IMG/VR virus record: IMGVR_UViG_2654587674_000003
Reading direction: 5' to 3' (one strand)
DNA from: a virus
Lineage: Duplodnaviria; Heunggongvirae; Uroviricota; Caudoviricetes
Length of the DNA: 64,000 nt
The translations under genes and the position numbers were made by a program. The notes below the pieces were generated by a model. That model searched no databases. It was given only the letters and a program-made list of their open reading frames with translations, and was not told the DNA's origin. The stretch's first letter is position 1. Every line of letters starts with the position of its first letter. Below, in pieces: positions 3,736 to 51,991 of the stretch.

Positions 3736-3805
3736 AACAGATACCCGGTTACGGACCGGGTTCTGACCAGAGTCCACTTAATACGCACGCTAGTAAGGGC
3801 AAAAA

Positions 3806-4144
3806 ATGAAACAGGCAACCAGAAAACCGACGACCGTAGGTGATATCCTGCTGTACGAATACCTGGAGCCGTTAGAGCTGAAGATCAACGAGTTAGCAGA
3901 AATACTTCATGTTCATCGTAACACCGTAAGCGCTCTTGTTAATAACAATCGTAAGCTAACGATGGATATGGCATATCGCCTGGCAAAAGCATTCGATACT
4001 TCTGTAGATTTTTGGATTAATCTTCAGACCGCAGTAGATCTGTGGGAAGTCGAAAATGATATGCGCGTCCAGGAAGAGTTAAGTCGTATCAATACTGCTG
4101 AAAAATTTATTTCTCAGCGGAACCTGAATAAAAAAGCAGCCTGA
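3806..4144 (+). CDS. higA: HigA-family antitoxin (XRE-type HTH)
   Basis: 112-aa ORF with HTH LAEILHVHRNTVSALVNNNRKLTMDMAYRLAKAF; immediately downstream of higB. Confidence 0.7.
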   Translation: MKQATRKPTTVGDILLYEYLEPLELKINELAEILHVHRNTVSALVNNNRKLTMDMAYRLAKAFDTSVDFWINLQTAVDLWEVENDMRVQEELSRINTAEKFISQRNLNKKAA

Positions 4145-10785: not shown

Positions 10786-11313
10786 ATACCCCACGATAAT
10801 GCCATGGCGCAACAGTCAGTATTTTATGCTTTGGCGGATTTCTTCCGGGCTTGCTTGCAGGCGTAGGCCATTGCTTTAGCTTTCACTTCATCCAGCTTCC
10901 CGGTGATCACTTCTTTTCCGAGAGTGACAAACCAGTCATAGCAACCGCCAGTAATGTTCTTGATTTGAAAGTTGAGGTAGCGAACAGTCATTTTGACACC
11001 CCCAGCGCGAGTAAAGAATGCAGATTATCGCGTGAGTGGTGGACGACGAGTGATGGGAAAAGACTGTAGTTGTTCATAGTGTAGTGACTCCTTGCTTTCG
11101 GAGCCGCCATTGACTGTTCCACGGTCTGGTGGCGGCGCAATAAAGGCTGGAACACCGTGAGTCAACGGGGGCTTTTCAGCCACCTATATTGCACCGCCAT
11201 AGGTATAGCGGCGGCAATAATACGAAAAACTAAACAGTTTGTCTCAAAAAGTTGACCGGTGTGCCAATCGGTAGTGAATGTACATCGGGGAAATTTACAA
11301 TTCAACTTAAAAT

Positions 11314-11327
11314 GTTAGAAAACTAAT
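11314..11327. promoter_or_regulatory. TGTTAGAAAA box
   Basis: tgttagaaaactaa at the 3' end of ref. Confidence 0.3.
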
Positions 11328-11950: not shown

Positions 11951-11982
11951 GTTAGATATTCAAAATTGATTTTCTAACATAA
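11951..11982. promoter_or_regulatory. TTTTCTAACA box pair upstream of ref
   Basis: gttaga-N16-tctaac inverted pair; about 60 nt upstream of the ref start codon. Confidence 0.4.
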
Positions 11983-17203: not shown

Positions 17204-17233
17204 GTTAGAACATTGATTTTAGTTTTCTAACAT
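17204..17233. promoter_or_regulatory. TTTTCTAACA box pair followed by TATTAT
   Basis: gttagaa-N13-ttttctaaca-tattat, about 45 nt upstream of ORF 17275. Confidence 0.4.
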
Positions 17234-28132: not shown

Positions 28133-28158
28133 ATCTAAAAAGATGTGTTAGAATTTTA
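28133..28158. promoter_or_regulatory. TGTTAGAA box pair
   Basis: tctaa-N8-ttaga between recombinase stop and next gene. Confidence 0.3.
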
Positions 28159-28160
28159 AT

Positions 28161-29189
28161 TTACGAATCCATCAGGCGGCTATTAGCCCCCACAGACACG
28201 CCGCCACGGCGAAGATACCGCATAAGTGTTTCCGGTTTCTTCCAGGTTCCTTCCTGCATGATCTCCACCATAGACACCTGCTTTTCAGCCATATCAATAG
28301 CGGCCCCGACGCGTGCACTATGCCCAGTCCACGTCCGGTATCTTCCTTTGTTTGGCGTAGCATCTCTTTTATTCAGCAACACCCAGGCGTCGCTGAATAT
28401 TTTCTCCATTGCAGGTGCAGTAAGGGGCGTTGTCGTAATCCTGGCCTTATTGCTACGGTGTATCGGCGGGAACAGCACCGCGTCAGGATGTTCACGAAGC
28501 CCGGAAACATCCAGCCAGTCATTCAGCACAGCAGTAGTGCGACGGGAAAGCACCTTATCAAGCCCGGCGGCGGTCGTTATTGTCTTCGTGTGTGAAATAT
28601 GTAGCGTGACAGTGTCACCTGTTTGGTCCAGATCTCCTACACGAATACGCGAGATTTCCGACATACGCATCAGCGTATTGTATGCAACAAAGAGAAAAGC
28701 CCGGTTGCGCTGGTCCACCAGCCGTTCTGACCTGGACAGCAGGACGTCGAGCAGTTTCAGGTCGTCCCACCGCAACGGTATAGCCTGGCCTGTTCGCTCG
28801 CCTTTTTCCGTTGCCGCTTCACGCCGGATGCGCCGCATGGCCAGAGACACACTTTTATCGTCCGACAGCGGCGGGAGGCCACATTGCGAAAGCAGCATGT
28901 TAAGCATGGCATAGTGCTTATCAATGGTGGTCGAAGCCAGATCAGCATCATGCAGCTGAAGAAAATACTCGCGGGCCATCTCTGGTGAGATCGGGAACCA
29001 GGCGAGCTGGCGAGCGTGACACCATCTCGCCCAGGAGTGAAACACTAACCGGAGATCGCGCAAAGTATTCGGCGCGTAAGCCCCCTGGTCATTCATGAAC
29101 CGCATAAAGTTTTCTGCGGCCTCCTGGTACTCTTTGCCAATGTTGCGCAGAAAACCACCGGAGCTGCCAGAGATAATTAATTTACTCAT
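28161..29189 (-). CDS. dre: Cre-family tyrosine recombinase (Dre-like)
   Basis: 342 aa; VSLAMRRIRRE, NRAFLFVAYNTLMRMSEISRIRV, WTGHSARVGAAIDMA...EIMQEGTWK align with Cre catalytic core; rox-like site 150 bp upstream. Confidence 0.85.
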   Translation of the reverse strand: MSKLIISGSSGGFLRNIGKEYQEAAENFMRFMNDQGAYAPNTLRDLRLVFHSWARWCHARQLAWFPISPEMAREYFLQLHDADLASTTIDKHYAMLNMLLSQCGLPPLSDDKSVSLAMRRIRREAATEKGERTGQAIPLRWDDLKLLDVLLSRSERLVDQRNRAFLFVAYNTLMRMSEISRIRVGDLDQTGDTVTLHISHTKTITTAAGLDKVLSRRTTAVLNDWLDVSGLREHPDAVLFPPIHRSNKARITTTPLTAPAMEKIFSDAWVLLNKRDATPNKGRYRTWTGHSARVGAAIDMAEKQVSMVEIMQEGTWKKPETLMRYLRRGGVSVGANSRLMDS

Positions 29190-29373: not shown

Positions 29374-29556
29374 TAAAATGCCGATTTTTTTTAATCCATC
29401 ATAGATTGATGATGACCAGTAACACGTTGCCTTCATGGTCTTTAATTTGCGAAGTGTGGTTTCTACGGTTGGTTTTCTAAAATTGATGACAAAAAATCAC
29501 AGTTCGATCCTTTACTCACTCTGTTATTCGACATAAATTTGTCATAGTAATTTTAT

Positions 29557-29570
29557 GTTAGAAAACTAAA
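29557..29570 (+). promoter_or_regulatory. TGTTAGAAAA box
   Basis: tgttagaaaactaa 14 nt upstream of the RBS of ORF 29584. Confidence 0.4.
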
Positions 29571-29583
29571 TCGAGTAGGAATA

Positions 29584-30621
29584 ATGAGTAAGAAGTCGAT
29601 CGAGAAAGAGTACAAACGGTTCCTGCAAACCGCTGAACGGTGGAAAGAGCTGGTGGTCGCAAACTCTGTTTTCCATGATACCAGTTATGCTGGCGAGGAA
29701 TTCCGCCATGTTGCATTAACGCATGACCAAAACATATTAGAAGAAGCTGAAAAATGTCTTGCTGAATGGAAAGCCTTCGTTGACATGTGCCGCGATGCCG
29801 ACGGCAAAGCGTCGAACATTGTTGAGTCTGTATATTCTCCGATCCCATTCATCATTGAGGACACCAATCAAAGCACGCATGTCGTTGTGCAAAGCGCTAC
29901 AACAACACGTACATTTACACGTGAACAATTGCTAAAAAAATACGACAAAATCATAAAGAAAAGCCTTAAAAATAGGGTTTTTTCTCAAATCGTAGGTGAT
30001 CTTGAAGAAGAACAGCGCTTCTTTGAAGCTGAGCCTGAAGGCGAGATCTACCGGGCGCGTAAAGAGGCATATACAGATGTTGTGCTGACAACAAACATCG
30101 AAGGCAGCAATGCCCTTTCTCGCTTTAGAGTTGGCGCACATGGTGCATTGGTTTTCGCAAGACTACCGAAGACAACGATCCCCGTTGTCAATAATGTTGG
30201 TGAACGCCGGAGCATTACAATTTATTCTGGCGTCGAATCGGTACCTTGCAGCCTTCTCGGCGATTTTAACTTATATCGTGTTCGTGACCTGGAAAAACAC
30301 CAGCCAAGCTATGTTGCGAAGTCGTACATCTTAAGGAACATCGATATTCGCAATGAAAGCCTTAAGCAGAAATCCGCTAAGATGCTGGAGGATGCCGATC
30401 CGGCTATTCGCCATATCATTGAGCGTAAGATACGTACATCACGTGAAGCAATGGCAAGGCTGGATAAAATGGATCTGGAATTGTTAGACGTAATGATGGC
30501 CTCTGGAGACGACCTGACCGGCATTAAACTGAATGAAGCTCGTAAAAAATACGGCAAAGCAATCGAAGAACGTTACGGATACACATTCCCCCAAACGCAG
30601 TACGCCGCGAAGCTCTGGTAA
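29584..30621 (+). CDS. hypothetical protein at the immC-equivalent position (possible immunity repressor)
   Basis: 345 aa; between the rox site and the 3' end of pacB, convergent with pacB, where P1 carries c1; no sequence motif recognised. Confidence 0.3.
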   Translation: MSKKSIEKEYKRFLQTAERWKELVVANSVFHDTSYAGEEFRHVALTHDQNILEEAEKCLAEWKAFVDMCRDADGKASNIVESVYSPIPFIIEDTNQSTHVVVQSATTTRTFTREQLLKKYDKIIKKSLKNRVFSQIVGDLEEEQRFFEAEPEGEIYRARKEAYTDVVLTTNIEGSNALSRFRVGAHGALVFARLPKTTIPVVNNVGERRSITIYSGVESVPCSLLGDFNLYRVRDLEKHQPSYVAKSYILRNIDIRNESLKQKSAKMLEDADPAIRHIIERKIRTSREAMARLDKMDLELLDVMMASGDDLTGIKLNEARKKYGKAIEERYGYTFPQTQYAAKLW

Positions 30622-33910: not shown

Positions 33911-33988
33911 TAATCCCCCGGGCAGGAAATGACCGAGGGGATGATAATGAGAATGTTAAAACTGTATAGACTGGTAAAAAGATGATTG

Positions 33989-34017
33989 TATTAGAAAATT
34001 AATACTAAATATCTAAT
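33989..34017. promoter_or_regulatory. TTAGAAAA box pair upstream of lpa-like gene
   Basis: attaga-N16-tctaat about 80 nt upstream of ORF 33518..33910. Confidence 0.4.
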
Positions 34018-35440: not shown

Positions 35441-35516
35441 TGGTGGCCCCTACCGGACTTGAACCGGTGACCGTGCGATTATGAGTCGCCAGCTCTAACC
35501 ACTGAGCTAAGGGGCC
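35441..35516 (-). tRNA. tRNA-Ile (anticodon CAU; Ile2/lysidine type)
   Basis: GGCCCCTTAGCTCAGTGGTTAGAGC...CTCATAA...GGTTCAAGTCC...GGGGCCACCA; near-identical to E. coli ileX as I recall it. Confidence 0.85.
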
Positions 35517-36234: not shown

Positions 36235-36370
36235 TGGTTATCCCTCAATAAACATGACGTATTTATTAGGTTGCGGTGCCTGGTGCCTCCAGGTGACGTT
36301 AACCAGTTAACAATTAACGCCGGGATGTTTGACTTAACCACTAAGGAGGATTGTTTTAACTGTTCCGCGT

Positions 36371-36405
36371 GCGCATAGCCGCATTCACCGCAATGGTAAG
36401 AGCAC
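36371..36405. repeat. hairpin repeat family, copy B (5' motif only)
   Basis: gcgcatagccgcattcaccgcaatggtaagagcac. Confidence 0.35.
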
Positions 36406-36501: not shown

Positions 36502-36588
36502 TGGCGGAGAGTAATGGAATCGAACCATCATCGCTTGCGCAATGGGACGGTTTTCAAGACCGTTTGAGCACCATGCTCCCTACTCTCC
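36502..36588 (-). tRNA. tRNA-Ser (anticodon UGA)
   Basis: minus-strand GGAGAGT...anticodon loop CTTGAAA, long variable arm, GGTTCGATTCC T-loop, ACTCTCC-G-CCA. Confidence 0.75.
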
Positions 36589-36666
36589 AGTGATTGTGAT
36601 GGTCGGTGCTGAACTCCGACACAGGGTTGTAGCAAGCCCCGCAAAGCGCGCACTACTGTAGTTGCG

Positions 36667-36786
36667 GCACATCAGCCTGTGCATTCACCACAATGTTGAG
36701 AACACTGGTTGTCACGCTGCAACGCAACATTTATTCGTAGATTGGGATATGACCCCGTTACGCCAGTGTTCTCAACGTTGTAGTGC
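36667..36786. repeat. hairpin repeat family, copy C
   Basis: gcacatcagcctgtgcattcaccacaatgttgagaacactgg ... ccagtgttctcaacgttg (17/18 complementary). Confidence 0.45.
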
Positions 36787-36910
36787 CGGTTACGGTTCCG
36801 GCCAGGCCTCTTCCTCAACGGGGTGTTCTCCATACGGACTACCGTTTATTGGTCGTTCCTGCGGTTTATGTTGTGAAGCCAGATGCTTATCTTCTGGTTG
36901 CTTCAAAGAG

Positions 36911-36989
36911 CTGCACTTCATCACAACGGTAAGAGCACTCGATGCATTTAAGCCAAGCCCCATAAGGGAGAATGCCCTTACCTGTTGTG
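36911..36989. repeat. hairpin repeat family, copy D
   Basis: ctgcacttcatcacaacggtaagagc ... gcccttacctgttgtg. Confidence 0.45.
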
Positions 36990-37094
36990 TTGTGATGACC
37001 GGTGCTGATCTCCGGCTTGCGGTTATTTCAGACTCTCACGGGCGTTTAATTGCCCCGCCGAACAGCTCTTTTCCGCAATAGCTGCAATGTCTTT

Positions 37095-37202
37095 CGCGCA
37101 TCAGCCTGCGCATTCATCACAACGGTAAGGGTACTTCGTAGGGATTCGAACCCTCTGCCAAGCTCGGCGATCTCCGACGTCGCAAAATACCCTTACCTGT
37201 TG
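37095..37202. repeat. hairpin repeat family, copy E, with embedded tRNA-like T-arm
   Basis: gcgcatcagcctgcgcattcatcacaacggtaagggta ... tacccttacctgttgtg; interior carries GAGGGTTCGAATCCCT on minus strand but no D or anticodon arm. Confidence 0.45.
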
Positions 37203-37205
37203 TGC

Positions 37206-37281
37206 TGGTGCCGATTAACGGACTCGAACCGCTGACATCCTGCTTACAAGGCAGGCGCTCTACCAACTGAGCTAAACCGGC
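37206..37281 (-). tRNA. tRNA-Thr (anticodon UGU)
   Basis: GCCGGTTTAGCTCAGTTGGTAGAGC...CTTGTAA...GGTTCGAGTCC...ATCGGCACCA. Confidence 0.8.
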
Positions 37282-37283
37282 AT

Positions 37284-37359
37284 TGGCGATGGTGGATGGA
37301 TTTGAACCATCGACCCGTTGATTAACAGTCAACCGCTCTAACCGCTGAGCTACACCATC
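37284..37359 (-). tRNA. tRNA-Asn (anticodon GUU)
   Basis: GATGGTGTAGCTCAGCGGTTAGAGC...CTGTTAA...GGTTCAAATCC...CACCATCGCCA; 2 nt upstream of tRNA-Thr. Confidence 0.8.
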
Positions 37360-37559
37360 ACTTGCCGGGTACGTCTCCGGCGAGGGCTTCCACCTCCGTA
37401 TGCTTTTCGGCGCACCGCGCCCTGGGTGCAATTCGGTAACAGGGGATGCACAACCCTGGCTTCCAGCGTGATTAGCGCCTTCAGCATGACGGGATATACC
37501 CGTAGTAGGATGTTATCCCAGAAAGCCATTAACCAATGGCTGTTACGCGGGAGGGACGT

Positions 37560-37636
37560 AACAGGTAAGGGCGCTGACCAGAAAGACCTGACCCTTCTCA
37601 TTCATCTGGTTAATCACACCAGCGCCCTTGCCTGTT
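37560..37636. repeat. hairpin repeat family, copy F
   Basis: aacaggtaagggcgctg-N43-cagcgcccttgcctgtt. Confidence 0.4.
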
Positions 37637-38575
37637 ATGCCTCCCCGTTCCCTAATACACAGACGGGGACACTCTGCGGTCGATTTTTTGACGGGGGACG
37701 ACTCATACCCCGTGGCGTCAGGCTTCTTAGGCCGCTACCATCATCAGATCATCGTTTGCATTTACTTTAATGGTCGGGTTCTAAACCGCCGCAAAGTCGC
37801 TAACCATGACGAAAACCCTAAAAAAGCCCACCCGAAGATGGGCAAATACGCTACATCTCACACAAGAAAGAAGCCGACTGCCTGAGCTGGATTCACTTTC
37901 AAATGCCCGCTGAAAGGGATCACAAGTCGGCTTCTTTCTTGATGCGGCACTCTCTCCGCCCGTCACCGCTCTGTCTCGGTTGTCGCGTTTGCCACGCCAG
38001 CCGTAACGAGGTTTAAAGTCTTTGCACGTTTCCATCACTCGACTGCCGTCTGTGGCTGTTCGTTGCAGCGGGGGTGCCTCCCCCTGGGGATATCCCCGGC
38101 CTTACCCCATTCTTTCAAGACACAATGCAAGGCCACATCCGCATAGGTGCATTACCGCAACATTAAGGAGACTCAGGGCAAAAGGTAACCGCCACAAAAA
38201 TCCCTATGCCTCCTTAATGTTGAAGATGTGCATTGATGATTAGATGCAGCATGTACCGTTACTCTCTGCCGGACCATCATCAATGAACACCTTAAAAAGA
38301 CCTTCCGTGGCTCAACATGTATTGTCGTTTACTCCGCAAAGTGCTCTCTCTGAAACCACTTTCCGCACTAAACCTGTTGAACTTTGGTCTGCTCGGTGCC
38401 AAAGCGTGCTCTTGGTTTACTATACTTTTCTAACACTTTAATTTGTTAATTGCTGGTGGGCATACAATAACCAATAAGTGACTATCAAGCCCAGCAAGCG
38501 AAACGTGGGTACCGCCCACCAGCAAGGAAAATTCTATGTTAAGTCATCTTCACAATCAATACATTCAAATTGTGA

Positions 38576-38597
38576 TTTTAGATTTCTAACACATTAT
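38576..38597 (-). promoter_or_regulatory. TTTCTAACA box facing the 1.2-kb noncoding region and tRNA genes
   Basis: ttttagatttctaacacatta; on the minus strand reads TGTGTTAGAAATCTAAAA toward lower coordinates. Confidence 0.35.
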
Positions 38598-39802
38598 TTC
38601 CCGTAAAGATCTTCTACACCCCCATTCTTCTTATCCCATTCGTTCGCCCATACCCGGCAAGCGTCAATGATTTCCTGACGACGATCTCCTTGCATGAACG
38701 GAATGCTTTCATGGAAACAGCTTGGAATGCAGGCCACACTGAATACAGTATCAAACTCCGTCTGCTTGATTGCCTCCAGCGTCTCCGGACGCATTTTTAA
38801 TTCATCGATTGGCGCATCCTTAGAGTCCATAATCCGGCGATATAAGCGCGGAAAATCCGTCTCCAGGTACGCCATAATTTTATCTGCGAGACATTCGTCT
38901 ATGTCGGTATTCCAGTCCTTTTCGAAGCCCGGCAGGCGATAGTAAAGCGGCGTTCCCCATACCGATGGGATCACATCCATCGTTAACAGGCGATTAGTTC
39001 TGATTTGTTGATGGTAATTAGCCGTCAGCAGTGCTTCGCCACGCTGCCCAGTTTCCGCAACCAGGCCGTGCGGATACTCATGGATGTAGGCAATGGCATC
39101 CCTTCCATCATACATAAGTGGAAATGTCTCTGGTCTTTGTCCCATGCCACAAGCACGGTTCAGATCGTGACCAAGCTGTGAACACTCTCGCTTTAATGTT
39201 TCGATAATGCTCTGCGCTGTAGCCAACTTTTTACGCAGTGTGACGCCTTCGCCTTGATAATCAATGCATTGCTGATTGAGCTTGGTTAAACGCTCTTTTA
39301 GTTCCCGGCGCTCTCTTTTCAGCGTGCGGTTATCCTTCTCCGCAACATCCAGCCGCTTTGTCAGGCTTGGCGGATAGTCTTTTTTGTAACGGTTCAAATC
39401 GGCTTCGGCAGATTTACGCAGTGTATTTGCCTGTTCAAGACGCGCTTCCAGATTGCCGATCTCATTACGCATATTCGCGGCAAATTGATTAACTGCATCG
39501 CCCAGGCTTTCAACTGTCGCTGATACGCCTGTGACTTGTGAAAAACGGATCAAGCCATCATTAACGGCTTGTTGGTATTCCTCAAACTGATCCACCAGCT
39601 TATTGTAATCAACTGCCCCATCATCAAGCAGCTTGTTGATTTCCGCCACTAGGTTATCTGTAGTGGCAATGACACTCTCGTGCAGTCGCTTTGACAGGTC
39701 ATCACCCGGATTCCGTTTCTGTATAAGAGCGATTTGTGTGCGCAGCGTTTCAATTGCTGTCGAGATAATTTCCAGATTAGAAGTATCAGTGTGTTGACTC
39801 AT
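38594..39802 (-). CDS. coiled-coil protein, function unknown
   Basis: 402-aa ORF; box 30 nt upstream of start. Confidence 0.45.
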   Translation of the reverse strand: MSQHTDTSNLEIISTAIETLRTQIALIQKRNPGDDLSKRLHESVIATTDNLVAEINKLLDDGAVDYNKLVDQFEEYQQAVNDGLIRFSQVTGVSATVESLGDAVNQFAANMRNEIGNLEARLEQANTLRKSAEADLNRYKKDYPPSLTKRLDVAEKDNRTLKRERRELKERLTKLNQQCIDYQGEGVTLRKKLATAQSIIETLKRECSQLGHDLNRACGMGQRPETFPLMYDGRDAIAYIHEYPHGLVAETGQRGEALLTANYHQQIRTNRLLTMDVIPSVWGTPLYYRLPGFEKDWNTDIDECLADKIMAYLETDFPRLYRRIMDSKDAPIDELKMRPETLEAIKQTEFDTVFSVACIPSCFHESIPFMQGDRRQEIIDACRVWANEWDKKNGGVEDLYGK

Positions 39803-39830: not shown

Positions 39831-39846
39831 TTTTCTAACATATATT
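39831..39846 (-). promoter_or_regulatory. TTTTCTAACA box
   Basis: ttttctaacatatatt about 30 nt upstream of the start of ORF 38594..39802. Confidence 0.4.
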
Positions 39847-40873: not shown

Positions 40874-40887
40874 TTTTCTAACACACC
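40874..40887 (-). promoter_or_regulatory. TTTTCTAACA box
   Basis: tttttctaacacac upstream of the VRR-NUC-like gene. Confidence 0.35.
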
Positions 40888-50757: not shown

Positions 50758-50790
50758 TTTAGAAACAGCAAATTAATTTTCTAACACAAA
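50758..50790 (-). promoter_or_regulatory. TTTTCTAACA box pair at the head of cassette 2
   Basis: tttagaaac-N10-ttttctaacacaaa. Confidence 0.4.
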
Positions 50791-51803: not shown

Positions 51804-51977
51804 CAGATAGTTCCGTGAAAAAATCTATCTACCGTATAAATCTATGGCAGTGGATTTATACACCCAAAAAGCCGCTTCTCAGCGGCTTTTGCTTTTTTGG
51901 CAGTCGCTACCGGAGCAGTGACCGCGATCCTACTCGATCCCATCCACCAGGATCAACAGTGTATATAAATACACTAT

Positions 51978-51991
51978 GTTAGAAATTTAAC
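51978..51991 (-). promoter_or_regulatory. TGTTAGAAA box
   Basis: tgttagaaatttaa about 175 nt upstream of ORF 50841..51803. Confidence 0.3.

Follow-up and report, generated by a model that had tools for sequence, protein, structure and literature searches.

A tmRNA-like messenger element in the putative non-coding leader of the tRNA genes of a D6-type phage-plasmid

The 64,000-nucleotide (nt) stretch of viral DNA analysed here, called the window throughout (IMG/VR record IMGVR_UViG_2654587674_000003), is by its sequence a D6-type, P1-like phage-plasmid, and between a pmgS-like coding sequence (CDS) and the first of its tRNA genes lies an interval of 1.2 kb, positions 37360-38593, that contains a 182-nt element resembling the messenger part of transfer-messenger RNA (tmRNA). 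The interval matches Escherichia phage D6 at 97.8% identity and an E. coli plasmid at 100%, and its whole 1.2 kb is carried by about 106 D6-like plasmids at 92-100% identity. All tRNA genes of the window were placed by ARAGORN on the minus strand, which is also the strand of the element and of the reading frame inside it. The genes and the core feature of the locus are as follows.

38594-39802, minus strand: pmgS-like CDS, the upstream neighbour of the interval (tblastn with its protein did not reach P1 pmgS)
37639..37820, minus strand: tmRNA-like messenger element, 182 nt, the only copy in the window (family covariance model, Rfam and frame)
37727..37759, minus strand: start-less tag frame GCA AAC GAU GAU CUG AUG AUG GUA GCG GCC UAA, encoding ANDDLMMVAA*
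37284-37359, minus strand: tRNA-Asn
37206-37281, minus strand: tRNA-Thr
36502-36588, minus strand: tRNA-Ser(UGA)
35441-35516, minus strand: tRNA with a CAU anticodon

In a permissive Rfam scan the tmRNA_permuted model matched the window at 22.8 bits and P1 at 24.1 bits, against a gathering score of 47, with the tag frame in the aligned part, and the other Rfam tmRNA models gave 11.4 (alpha_tmRNA, in the window) and 13.1 (beta_tmRNA, in P1). The frame has no start codon, is preceded by an in-frame UAG eight codons upstream of its GCA resume codon, and can be set beside the E. coli tag ANDENYALAA. Approximately 190 loci were gathered by scanning IMG/VR twice with exact patterns and reference genomes once; 155 copies were extracted from them, and the frame comprises exactly ten codons plus a stop in 155 of 155. 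These copies spell it in 28 nucleotide versions, in which GCA AAC exchanges with GCU AAU and GAU with GAC, all four alanine codons are used at the last tag position, and the stops UAA, UAG and UGA interchange; the alternative AUG-initiated frame varies in length from 5 to 9 codons among copies. This substitution pattern suggests that ribosomes read the ten-codon frame. The U and A located 5 and 4 nt before the resume codon (37764-37763; T74 and A75 of the alignment) are invariant in the 67 representatives chosen for alignment, and their E. coli counterparts, U85/A86, are needed for tmRNA frame choice (PMC2481249). In Klebsiella SSU5-like plasmids the match is restricted to the tag stretch, which encodes ANDDVVLMAA. 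The 19-mer of the resume region, AAGUAAAUGCAAACGAUGA, recurs identically in permuted phage tmRNAs that ARAGORN calls in environmental viral contigs; the IMG/VR contigs in question are L015, L055, L094, L024, L012, L025, L030, L052, L057, L058 and L067, and the tags of these permuted tmRNAs include ANDERFALAA, ANDEKFALAA and ANDDVYNLALAA. Matches of the 19-mer in genome_contigs (Duganella, Emticicia, Clostridia and others) were discarded as mostly chance in a 596-Gb search, being unrelated sequence without a tmRNA call.

Around this frame the element can be folded into a 5' domain and two downstream pseudoknots, all on the minus strand.

37818-37814 (GGGUU) with 37780-37776 (AACCC), minus strand: H1 of the 5' domain, in a possible PK1-like (pseudoknot) fold
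37796-37792 (CUUUG) with 37769-37765 (UAAAG), minus strand: second stem of the 5' domain, in the same PK1-like fold
37712-37708 (CGGGG) with 37696-37692 (CCCCG), and 37702-37699 (GUCG) with 37682-37679 (CGAC), minus strand: pseudoknot A, which covaries
37677-37673 (GCAGA) with 37663-37659 (UCUGU), and 37669-37664 (UCCCCG) with 37647-37642 (CGGGGA), minus strand: pseudoknot B, which covaries

A preliminary description of the interval had proposed a covariance-model search; with Rfam this returned matches below gathering, and a model of the core family was then built from the 67 representatives. It finds a single match in the window (37639-37814, 134 bits, E = 4e-35) and, outside its training set, matches Felixounavirus TP1 at 110 bits and Kuttervirus GG32 at 164 bits. 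In the model-guided alignment 86.2% of cells are paired, compared with 74.6% in shuffles and with 0 of 500 shuffles reaching the observed value, while changes on both sides of a pair affect 206 cells versus 54 in shuffles; when partners are slid by 1-3 columns, pairing is at most 42%. The paired percentages are lowered by the P1-type rows. Around the last tag codons and the stop, the enclosing helix reaches 94% pairing, with exchanges between G-C and A-U. Stem 1 of pseudoknot A occurs as CGGGG/CCCCG, CAAGG/CCUUG, UGAGG/CCUCA, CGCGG/CCGUG and CUGGG/CCCAG, and its stem 2 as GUCG/CGAC in the P1/D6 type and as CCGA/UCGG, CCAA/UUGG and CCAG/CUGG elsewhere. For pseudoknot B the variants are GCAG/CUGU, GCAC/GUGU, GCAU/AUGU and GGAU/AUCU in stem 1, and UCCCCGU/ACGGGGA, GCCC/GGGC, GCCCUGA/UCAGGGC, AUCC/GGAU, GGCGGGAG/CUCCCGCC and others in stem 2. 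These variants were obtained by per-sequence extraction, the only way in which stem 2 of pseudoknot B was assessed; an alignment by MAFFT could not keep all lineages in register at the pseudoknots, and loops of the P1/D6 type deviate in length by 1-2 nt. The case for the 5' domain is weaker: H1 (AGUUU/AAACU, or GGGUU/AACCC in the window) shows some compensatory change, with 74% of cells paired in an imperfect 5' alignment, and the second stem, UUUG/CAAA, is invariant and hence uninformative on covariation, so that the PK1-like fold that the two would form, ending 5-6 nt before the resume codon, is put forward with more reserve.

The element is widespread among phages and keeps close company with tRNA genes. 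A blastn search with one core copy located it in 773 phage records, where it is almost always unannotated, and its carriers include P1-like phages, SSU5, Felixounavirus, Kuttervirus and other Ackermannviridae, Klebsiella siphoviruses, and Erwinia and Serratia phages. In 101 of the 138 copies with enough flanking sequence a tRNA gene on the same strand lies no more than 1.5 kb downstream (median distance 405 nt), and a nearby tRNA gene on the opposite strand was found in none of the 138. In Felixounavirus TP1 the element fills a 246-nt gap between tRNA-Ile and tRNA-Arg and is preceded by TTGACA-17-TATAGT, and therefore the RNA should start at AGUUUUCG; copies of the Klebsiella siphovirus type likewise directly follow a promoter. 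T4 species 1 and 2 are stable non-tRNA RNAs that lie within phage tRNA transcripts and are presumably released from them by processing, and, compared without their sequences, they share with the element the position of a non-tRNA RNA within a phage tRNA cluster; they are not known to have a tag frame.

Several observations were made in the surroundings of other copies. In Kuttervirus GG32 (L214, a Salmonella phage) a mini tRNA-like RNA at about 1283-1355 lies approximately 190 nt upstream of the element on the same strand; it has an acceptor GGUGAGG/CCUCGCC with U3.G70 and a T-arm GUGUGG-UUCGAUU-CCGCAC, an anticodon arm and an encoded CCA are absent, and several further uncalled RNAs bearing T-arms follow the element. 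An insertion has removed the 5' domain of the copy in L021 (about 2100-2360); the inserted DNA ends with a TnpB-like coding sequence (IS200/IS605-type, identified by eye), and the copy scores only 66 bits with the family model. On the minus strand of the Pantoea plasmid L006, at about 3760-3850, a tRNA-like gene with normal D- and T-arms, a paired acceptor and a long insertion in the anticodon region follows a copy of a hairpin family and a module (module X), both described below, and is not called by ARAGORN. About 330 nt downstream of the element in L186 (Klebsiella siphovirus-type) lies a tRNA 3' fragment, comprising a T-loop, the 3' strand of the T-stem, the 3' strand of the acceptor and ACCA, where related contigs have complete tRNA-Arg and tRNA-Met genes, which indicates deletions between modules.

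Within the window the element is embedded in further structured RNA, listed here from the upstream end of the interval to tRNA-Asn.

38450..38525, minus strand: hairpin at the start of the putative transcript, 12-bp perfect arms GCCCACCAGCAA / TTGCTGGTGGGC, z = -3.3
38158..38296, minus strand: two adjacent long hairpins, arms 38220-38240/38276-38296 and 38158-38178/38202-38222, fold z = -6.3
37951..38075, minus strand: module X, a portable RNA module whose own fold is not significant, z = -0.85
37863..37941, minus strand: inverted-repeat stem, 17-bp perfect, with inner hairpin CUUUCA/UGAAAG
37820..37843 (hairpin 37826-37843), minus strand: intrinsic terminator GCCCAUC-UUCG-GGUGGGC plus U6, immediately 5' of the tmRNA-like element
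37550..37646, minus strand: copy of the hairpin family (ACAGGYAAGRGC.../...GCYCUUACCUGU), z = -5.8
37360..37549, minus strand: 3' part of the leader, specific to the P1 lineage (identity to P1 about 91%), running up to the 5' end of tRNA-Asn (presumed RNase P site)

The preliminary description had reported a 16-bp perfect inverted repeat and a hairpin-family copy at 37560..37636. The repeat is real and perfect, but it spans 17 nt (37863-37879/37925-37941, 100% complementary with 45 nt between the arms), the first arm having been placed one base off. By our own arithmetic a 17-bp repeat would be expected by chance at roughly 1e-5 (about 1e5 arm placements x 4^-17), and 37820-37945, folded as minus-strand RNA, gives z = -4.2. 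In the diverged plasmids CP042620 and CP091837 both tiers of the stem carry compensatory changes, among them A-U to U-A, G-C to A-U, GAAAGAAGCC/GGCUUCUUUC to AUACAAGCC/GGCUUGUAU, and, in the inner hairpin, CUUUCA/UGAAAG to CUUCU/AGAAG. The hairpin-family copy is present as described, with arms at 37550-37576/37620-37646; it directly follows pseudoknot B in most lineages, and this position is conserved. A blastn search with a 101-nt copy of the family did not list phage lambda, and we claim no likeness of the family to the lambda late leader. The hairpins 38450-38525, 38220-38296 and 38158-38222, the terminator and the tmRNA-like element are additional to what had been described.

The conservation of these parts is uneven. 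Although its loop diverges, the 38450-38525 hairpin keeps its arms in CP091837, and a block of about 175 nt (38075-38250) containing the two long hairpins is nearly invariant in all four relatives aligned. The terminator 37826-37843 is conserved in P1, and an equivalent terminator stands ahead of the element in the Erwinia copy and in a lambdoid contig. Copies of module X about 81% identical occur in a Pantoea plasmid and in Klebsiella phage Kp4865-1, and the module is cleanly absent from plasmid CP091837. The fold of 37360-37549 is not significant (z = -1.3), and a possible third pseudoknot in it (CAGGG/CCCUG with GUGCA/UGCAC) was read by eye. As to the conservation of length and structure in relatives that the preliminary description had asked about, helices are kept by compensatory changes, and modules are gained and lost among close relatives; by this comparison of sequences the leader is a mosaic of portable RNA modules. 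One module of P1, labelled 'dicF-like', occurs in two D6-like plasmids and is absent from the window. The likeness to DicF small RNA (sRNA) is limited to that P1 label, 'dicF-like region', and to a hairpin-rich stretch ended by a terminator; the P1 segment so labelled is the one absent here, and the Rfam DicF model (RF00039) gave no match at E <= 10 in the window or in P1. Other Rfam matches in the region (STnc240, MicA, miRNA precursors, Vault and others) lay far below gathering, were driven by hairpin-plus-terminator shapes, and were dismissed.

Modules of the same sort extend beyond the interval. On the minus strand between tRNA-Thr and tRNA-Ser (36590-37205) there are further RNA modules, including hairpin-family copies at 36917-36990 and 37110-37200, the latter enclosing a T-arm-like GAGGG-UUCGAAU-CCCUA, and a module GAAUGCGCAGGCUGAUGCGC...GCCGGAGAUCAGCACCGG with two complementary hairpin loops (GCUGAU / AUCAGC). 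P1-type records annotate this DNA as plp/upl proteins on the opposite strand, an annotation that looks doubtful. Farther along the minus strand, Rfam gave a near-threshold match to STnc100 sRNA (36272-36392, 40.1 bits versus a gathering score of 47), and the tRNA-Ser(UGA) gene (36502-36589) scores 45.1 bits as tRNA-Sec, for which the gathering score is also 47.

The upstream end of the interval holds a set of candidate control sites, all reading toward the tRNA genes.

38575..38592, minus strand: Box 1, probable D6-type C1 operator overlapping a -10 element, TGTTAGAAA at 38591-38583, then TC and TAAAAT at 38580-38575
38531..38559, minus strand: sigma-70-like promoter TTGATT-17-TAGAAT found by consensus scan, of putative function
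38419..38436, minus strand: Box 2, operator- or promoter-like, TGTTAGAAA at 38435-38427, then AG and TATAGT at 38424-38419; invariant, direct repeat

A single TTTCTAACA box facing into the region had been described; it is present, but in two copies rather than one (38583-38591 and 38427-38435), both facing the tRNAs, and on the minus strand each reads TGTTAGAAA-NN-(TAAAAT / TATAGT). In the window TTTCTAACA occurs in 11 exact copies against 0.43 expected, an over-representation of approximately 25-fold, and the TGTTAGAAA motif extends to 17-21 conserved bases, for which a position weight matrix (PWM) returns 15 hits, with some copies forming overlapping inverted pairs. Across the four diverged relatives aligned, the boxes and the TTGATT -35 element are invariant and the -10 is TAGAAT or TAAAAT, while the flanks diverge. 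Copies of the motif are found 12 nt before the ATG of the c1 repressor homologue, ahead of icd-ant, between the -35 and -10 elements of a TTGTTA-16-TAGTGT promoter before repL, and, twice, ahead of the tRNA operon; in one case the motif stands reversed inside a promoter spacer, and one box also precedes the pmgS-like gene. The loci c1, icd-ant, repL and tRNA operon match the C1 regulon of P1, in whose record we read the operator Op72; Op99, Op51 and Op53 are the P1 C1 operators at the corresponding loci. Outside the interval the sites of the motif are 29556-29572, 50778-50786, 51977-51985, 39832-39840, 40875-40883, 11313-11321, 11971-11979, 17224-17232 and 35-43, with weaker PWM hits at 28144-28164 and 33987-34007. 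The P1 operator consensus ATTGCTCTAATAAATTT has no site within 3 mismatches in the window, and the -22 box of P1-type late promoters (AAGTGACTT type) is there at chance level (1 versus 0.84). TGTTAGAAA-NN-(-10) was first read as a possible Lpa late promoter, a reading given up once c1, icd-ant and repL proved to carry the motif. We take the boxes to be, most probably, operators for a D6-type C1 that overlap promoters directed at the tRNAs. The TGTTAGAAA/TTTCTAACA motif is probably what the D6-type C1 repressor binds, and D6 immunity specificity would be set by it; since the pmgS-like gene, too, has a box ahead of it, the boxes may still serve as late promoters.

Comparison with P1 places these elements in an operon. 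The 487 nt upstream of tRNA-Asn (37360-37846) are about 91% identical to P1 and its relatives, and according to the P1 record their counterpart is flanked on one side by tRNA-Asn and on the other by P1ban, a C1-controlled promoter whose operator, Op72, is bivalent; this stretch therefore appears to be the leader of the ban/tRNA operon, and by the same homology a leader co-transcribed with the tRNAs is the natural reading of the interval. The P1 leader (P1ban/Op72, 'dicF-like region', tRNA-Asn, tRNA-Thr ... ban) and the present one share the terminator, the tag element and the hairpin-family copy, in the same position, order and strand relative to tRNA-Asn/Thr and tciA/tciB. They differ in that the promoter-proximal 750 nt here show no relationship to P1, TGTTAGAAA boxes stand in place of the P1 operator consensus, the 'dicF-like' module is missing even though two D6-like plasmids have one, and the upstream neighbour is the pmgS-like gene instead of dmt. 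Those approximately 750 nt (37847-38593) are confined to D6-type elements, with the exception of one module of about 110 nt. The D6 annotation does not list ban (DnaB-like helicase) downstream, giving tciA, tciB, two ORFs and then lpa, and a P1vir RNA-seq paper reports nothing on this locus. The preliminary suggestion of a leader or long structured RNA made together with the tRNAs is partly borne out: the region is non-coding, has conserved RNA structure, immediately precedes the tRNAs on their own strand and is in its tRNA-proximal part homologous to the P1 leader. It is not simply one long RNA, being a mosaic of modules with a strong intrinsic terminator midway and a discrete RNA gene family at its core.

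We consider it reasonably probable that the region is a repressor-controlled, modular non-coding leader that delivers a tag-template RNA together with tRNAs. The interval would be the leader of a repressor-controlled early tRNA/tci operon on the minus strand, running from about 38570 to tRNA-Asn. Once the D6-type C1 repressor leaves the two TGTTAGAAA boxes, transcription would start at the box-linked -10 elements and/or at TTGATT-17-TAGAAT, and the transcript would fold into the long hairpins seen here, to which we would assign a role in the leader. Part of the transcript would end at the intrinsic terminator 37826-37843, and the read-through RNA would carry the 182-nt element (37820 to 37639), the hairpin-family copy, tRNA-Asn, tRNA-Thr and further genes. 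Cleavage by RNase P at tRNA-Asn, and probably cleavage at the long hairpins as well, would then release the pieces. From the sequence evidence at family level, the element would be a tag-template RNA of the tmRNA kind, with a tag ending in Ala-Ala (Val-Ala in relatives). Since a start codon and a tRNA-like domain (TLD) are absent and the frame appears to be read, we infer that the element may take part in a kind of trans-translation in which another RNA, encoded by the phage or by the host, supplies the acceptor function.

Several findings speak against this proposal. ARAGORN at its default setting called no tmRNA in any lineage of the element, and the Rfam tmRNA models score far below gathering. 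No combination of T-arm, acceptor and CCA occurs in the 64-kb window beyond the four tRNAs and one hairpin, the latter, at about 37110-37200, being the sole other T-arm-like hairpin and having no CCA end. In other phages, where promoters sit right at AGUUUUCG, a 5' acceptor strand would not fit, and in the P1/D6 type a strong terminator stands between the promoters and the element with no fitting promoter between the two. The identity of the boxes as operators rather than late promoters is drawn from gene context only. The 19-mer of the first scan spans the first four codons, so that their conservation is there partly by construction; the pattern of the second scan lay outside the frame, and the blastn matches are independent of both scans. 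Lastly, the family model gives a true permuted tmRNA no more than 25 bits, and common descent with tmRNA is for this reason no more than suggested by the resemblance. An ARAGORN 'tmRNAp' pseudo call obtained at an 80% threshold was rejected as noise-level, its tRNA-like domain being unconvincing and an equally good call lying on the wrong strand; the resume consensus of the window element is recognised by ARAGORN only at a lowered threshold.

Because the defining tRNA-like domain was tested for and not found, we regard the element by its sequence as tmRNA-like and do not place it in the tmRNA family. With tmRNA (SsrA) it shares a start-less frame that opens with an alanine codon (GCA/GCU) as AN(D/E)... 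and ends in hydrophobic-Ala-Ala or Ala-Val-Ala, the U and A positioned 5 and 4 nt before the resume codon with a possible pseudoknot just upstream, and a stop codon within a helix (helix 5) followed by H-type pseudoknots. It differs in having no acceptor stem (7-bp, G3.U70), T-arm or CCA end, and therefore nothing to charge with alanine; in having only two downstream pseudoknots supported by covariation; in a putative upstream pseudoknot that ends 5-6 nt from the resume codon, compared with about 11 nt in E. coli tmRNA; in heading tRNA operons instead of standing alone next to smpB; and in scoring below the thresholds of Rfam and ARAGORN. A 2014 census of RefSeq phages and plasmids found tmRNA (ssrA) genes only in mycobacteriophages and Bacillus phage G, and mycobacteriophage DS6A has a tmRNA remnant consisting of the TLD only (PMC4131195). 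The DS6A remnant resembles our case as a phage RNA with only one tmRNA half, but DS6A keeps the tRNA-like domain without the message, whereas the present element keeps the message and pseudoknots without the tRNA-like domain. In the literature on phage tmRNA-like RNAs we found only mycobacteriophage, Bacillus phage G and marine phage cases and citations of ARAGORN, and no report of the element.

The alternatives differ mainly in how they account for a message without its tRNA half. It is conceivable, though we think it unlikely, that the element is the coding piece of a two-piece tmRNA, pairing with an alanine-accepting piece encoded elsewhere in phage or host, as in the permuted tmRNAs of alpha-proteobacteria and some phages. 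The resume-region 19-mer in common with permuted phage tmRNAs called by ARAGORN fits such an arrangement, as do the 5' motif GUUUUCG(A/U)C of the element, which resembles GGUUUCGAC of the 5' tRNA-like half of permuted tmRNAs, and the small TLD-like RNA about 190 nt upstream of the copy in Kuttervirus GG32. However, no acceptor piece was found in the 64 kb seen of a phage-plasmid of roughly 92 kb, a 5' acceptor strand is missing from the RNAs as their 5' ends are predicted, the candidate of GG32 lacks a CCA and shows U3.G70 in place of G3.U70, and no free acceptor piece is known from E. coli. Somewhat less credible again is an untranslated mimic or decoy, an RNA that titrates SmpB, ribosomal protein S1, RNase R or the ribosome and thereby damps or redirects host trans-translation. 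A decoy would explain the missing tRNA-like domain and has a mirror case in the TLD-only RNA of DS6A, a similar molecule to which strongly inhibits tmRNA (PMC4131195), and in tmRNA U85 and pseudoknots 2 and 3 have been cross-linked to S1 (PMC2481249); yet a decoy has no need of an intact frame, and 155 of 155 copies keep ten codons with synonymous swaps and interchange of alanine codons and stops. The missing half could also mark a decayed tmRNA fragment, functionless and carried passively in a leader that serves tRNA expression only, which would agree with the gain and loss of leader modules among relatives and with the one copy cut short by an insertion sequence. That account appears very improbable to us, as the frame is intact in every copy, the helices covary, and presence in 773 phage records, across unrelated virulent and temperate groups, is unlike a pseudogene.

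Two further readings were weighed. One takes the repeats to act purely as DNA, whether as palindromes bound by proteins, as an origin, or as a site of recombination or packaging, and it draws on the boxes, which almost certainly are DNA sites, and on the fact that perfect palindromes can be protein sites too; the crossing, strand-specific pseudoknot helices with G-U pairs and the strand-specific frame fit RNA only, and the hairpins always have the orientation of the tRNAs, and we accordingly give this reading hardly any weight. Least probable of all is that the region encodes one or more small proteins. The preliminary description had called the region ORF-poor, and indeed only mechanical ORFs of 30-114 amino acids lie between the pmgS-like CDS and tRNA-Asn. 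Seven candidate ORFs were scanned against PHROGs, six from the region and, as positive control, the c1-like ORF at 29584; the only region ORF with a match was 37426-37770 (plus strand, 114 amino acids; phrog_27020, function not known, E = 1e-45), and the other five matched no family. A few records also have 'hypothetical protein' calls here. Against these, the frame of 37426-37770 is broken by stops or frameshifts in P1, CP091837, CP042620 and L021, and its substitutions fall evenly over the codon positions (8/7/7 and 12/12/12) with no codon periodicity, which rules out the ORF as a phrog_27020 protein; the family therefore seems to reflect repeated automatic ORF calls on near-identical DNA. 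The curated P1 record and the D6 record annotate no gene in the homologous interval, where the sole label is the P1 'dicF-like region'. The conserved protein-coding gene that the preliminary description had held to be a possible counter-finding thus came down to this one match with a frame broken in four relatives, and 37360-38593 is, on present sequence evidence, non-coding.

In summary, our analysis presents phage tRNA-operon leaders as built up from RNA modules that can be exchanged, proposes a candidate C1 operator for phage D6 and removes several doubtful ORF calls. Beyond this, we raise tentatively the idea that enterobacterial phages make a free-standing 'tag cassette' RNA, composed of tmRNA message and pseudoknots with no tRNA half, that could be loaded onto stalled ribosomes by an undescribed route and replace the host ...ALAA tag. 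The phages concerned might be P1/D6, SSU5, Felix O1-like, Vi01-like, Klebsiella siphoviruses and some lambdoid phages; their tags could include ...MVAA, ...LAVA and ...LMAA; and loading might conceivably proceed by pairing with a separate acceptor RNA, by hijacking of host tmRNA-SmpB, or by pseudoknot-driven entry. The element occurs in model phages and in phages of therapy and biocontrol (P1, SSU5, Felix O1 relatives, Kuttervirus), and in nearly all of the 773 records it is unannotated or covered by spurious 'hypothetical protein' calls. If the idea is true, the phage would reprogram the fate of unfinished proteins while supplying its own tRNAs. The definition of tmRNA requires a tRNA half and an mRNA half to be joined in a single particle; a message half that is conserved, evidently decoded and travels alone would represent a new mode of trans-translation or a new viral interference with ribosome rescue.

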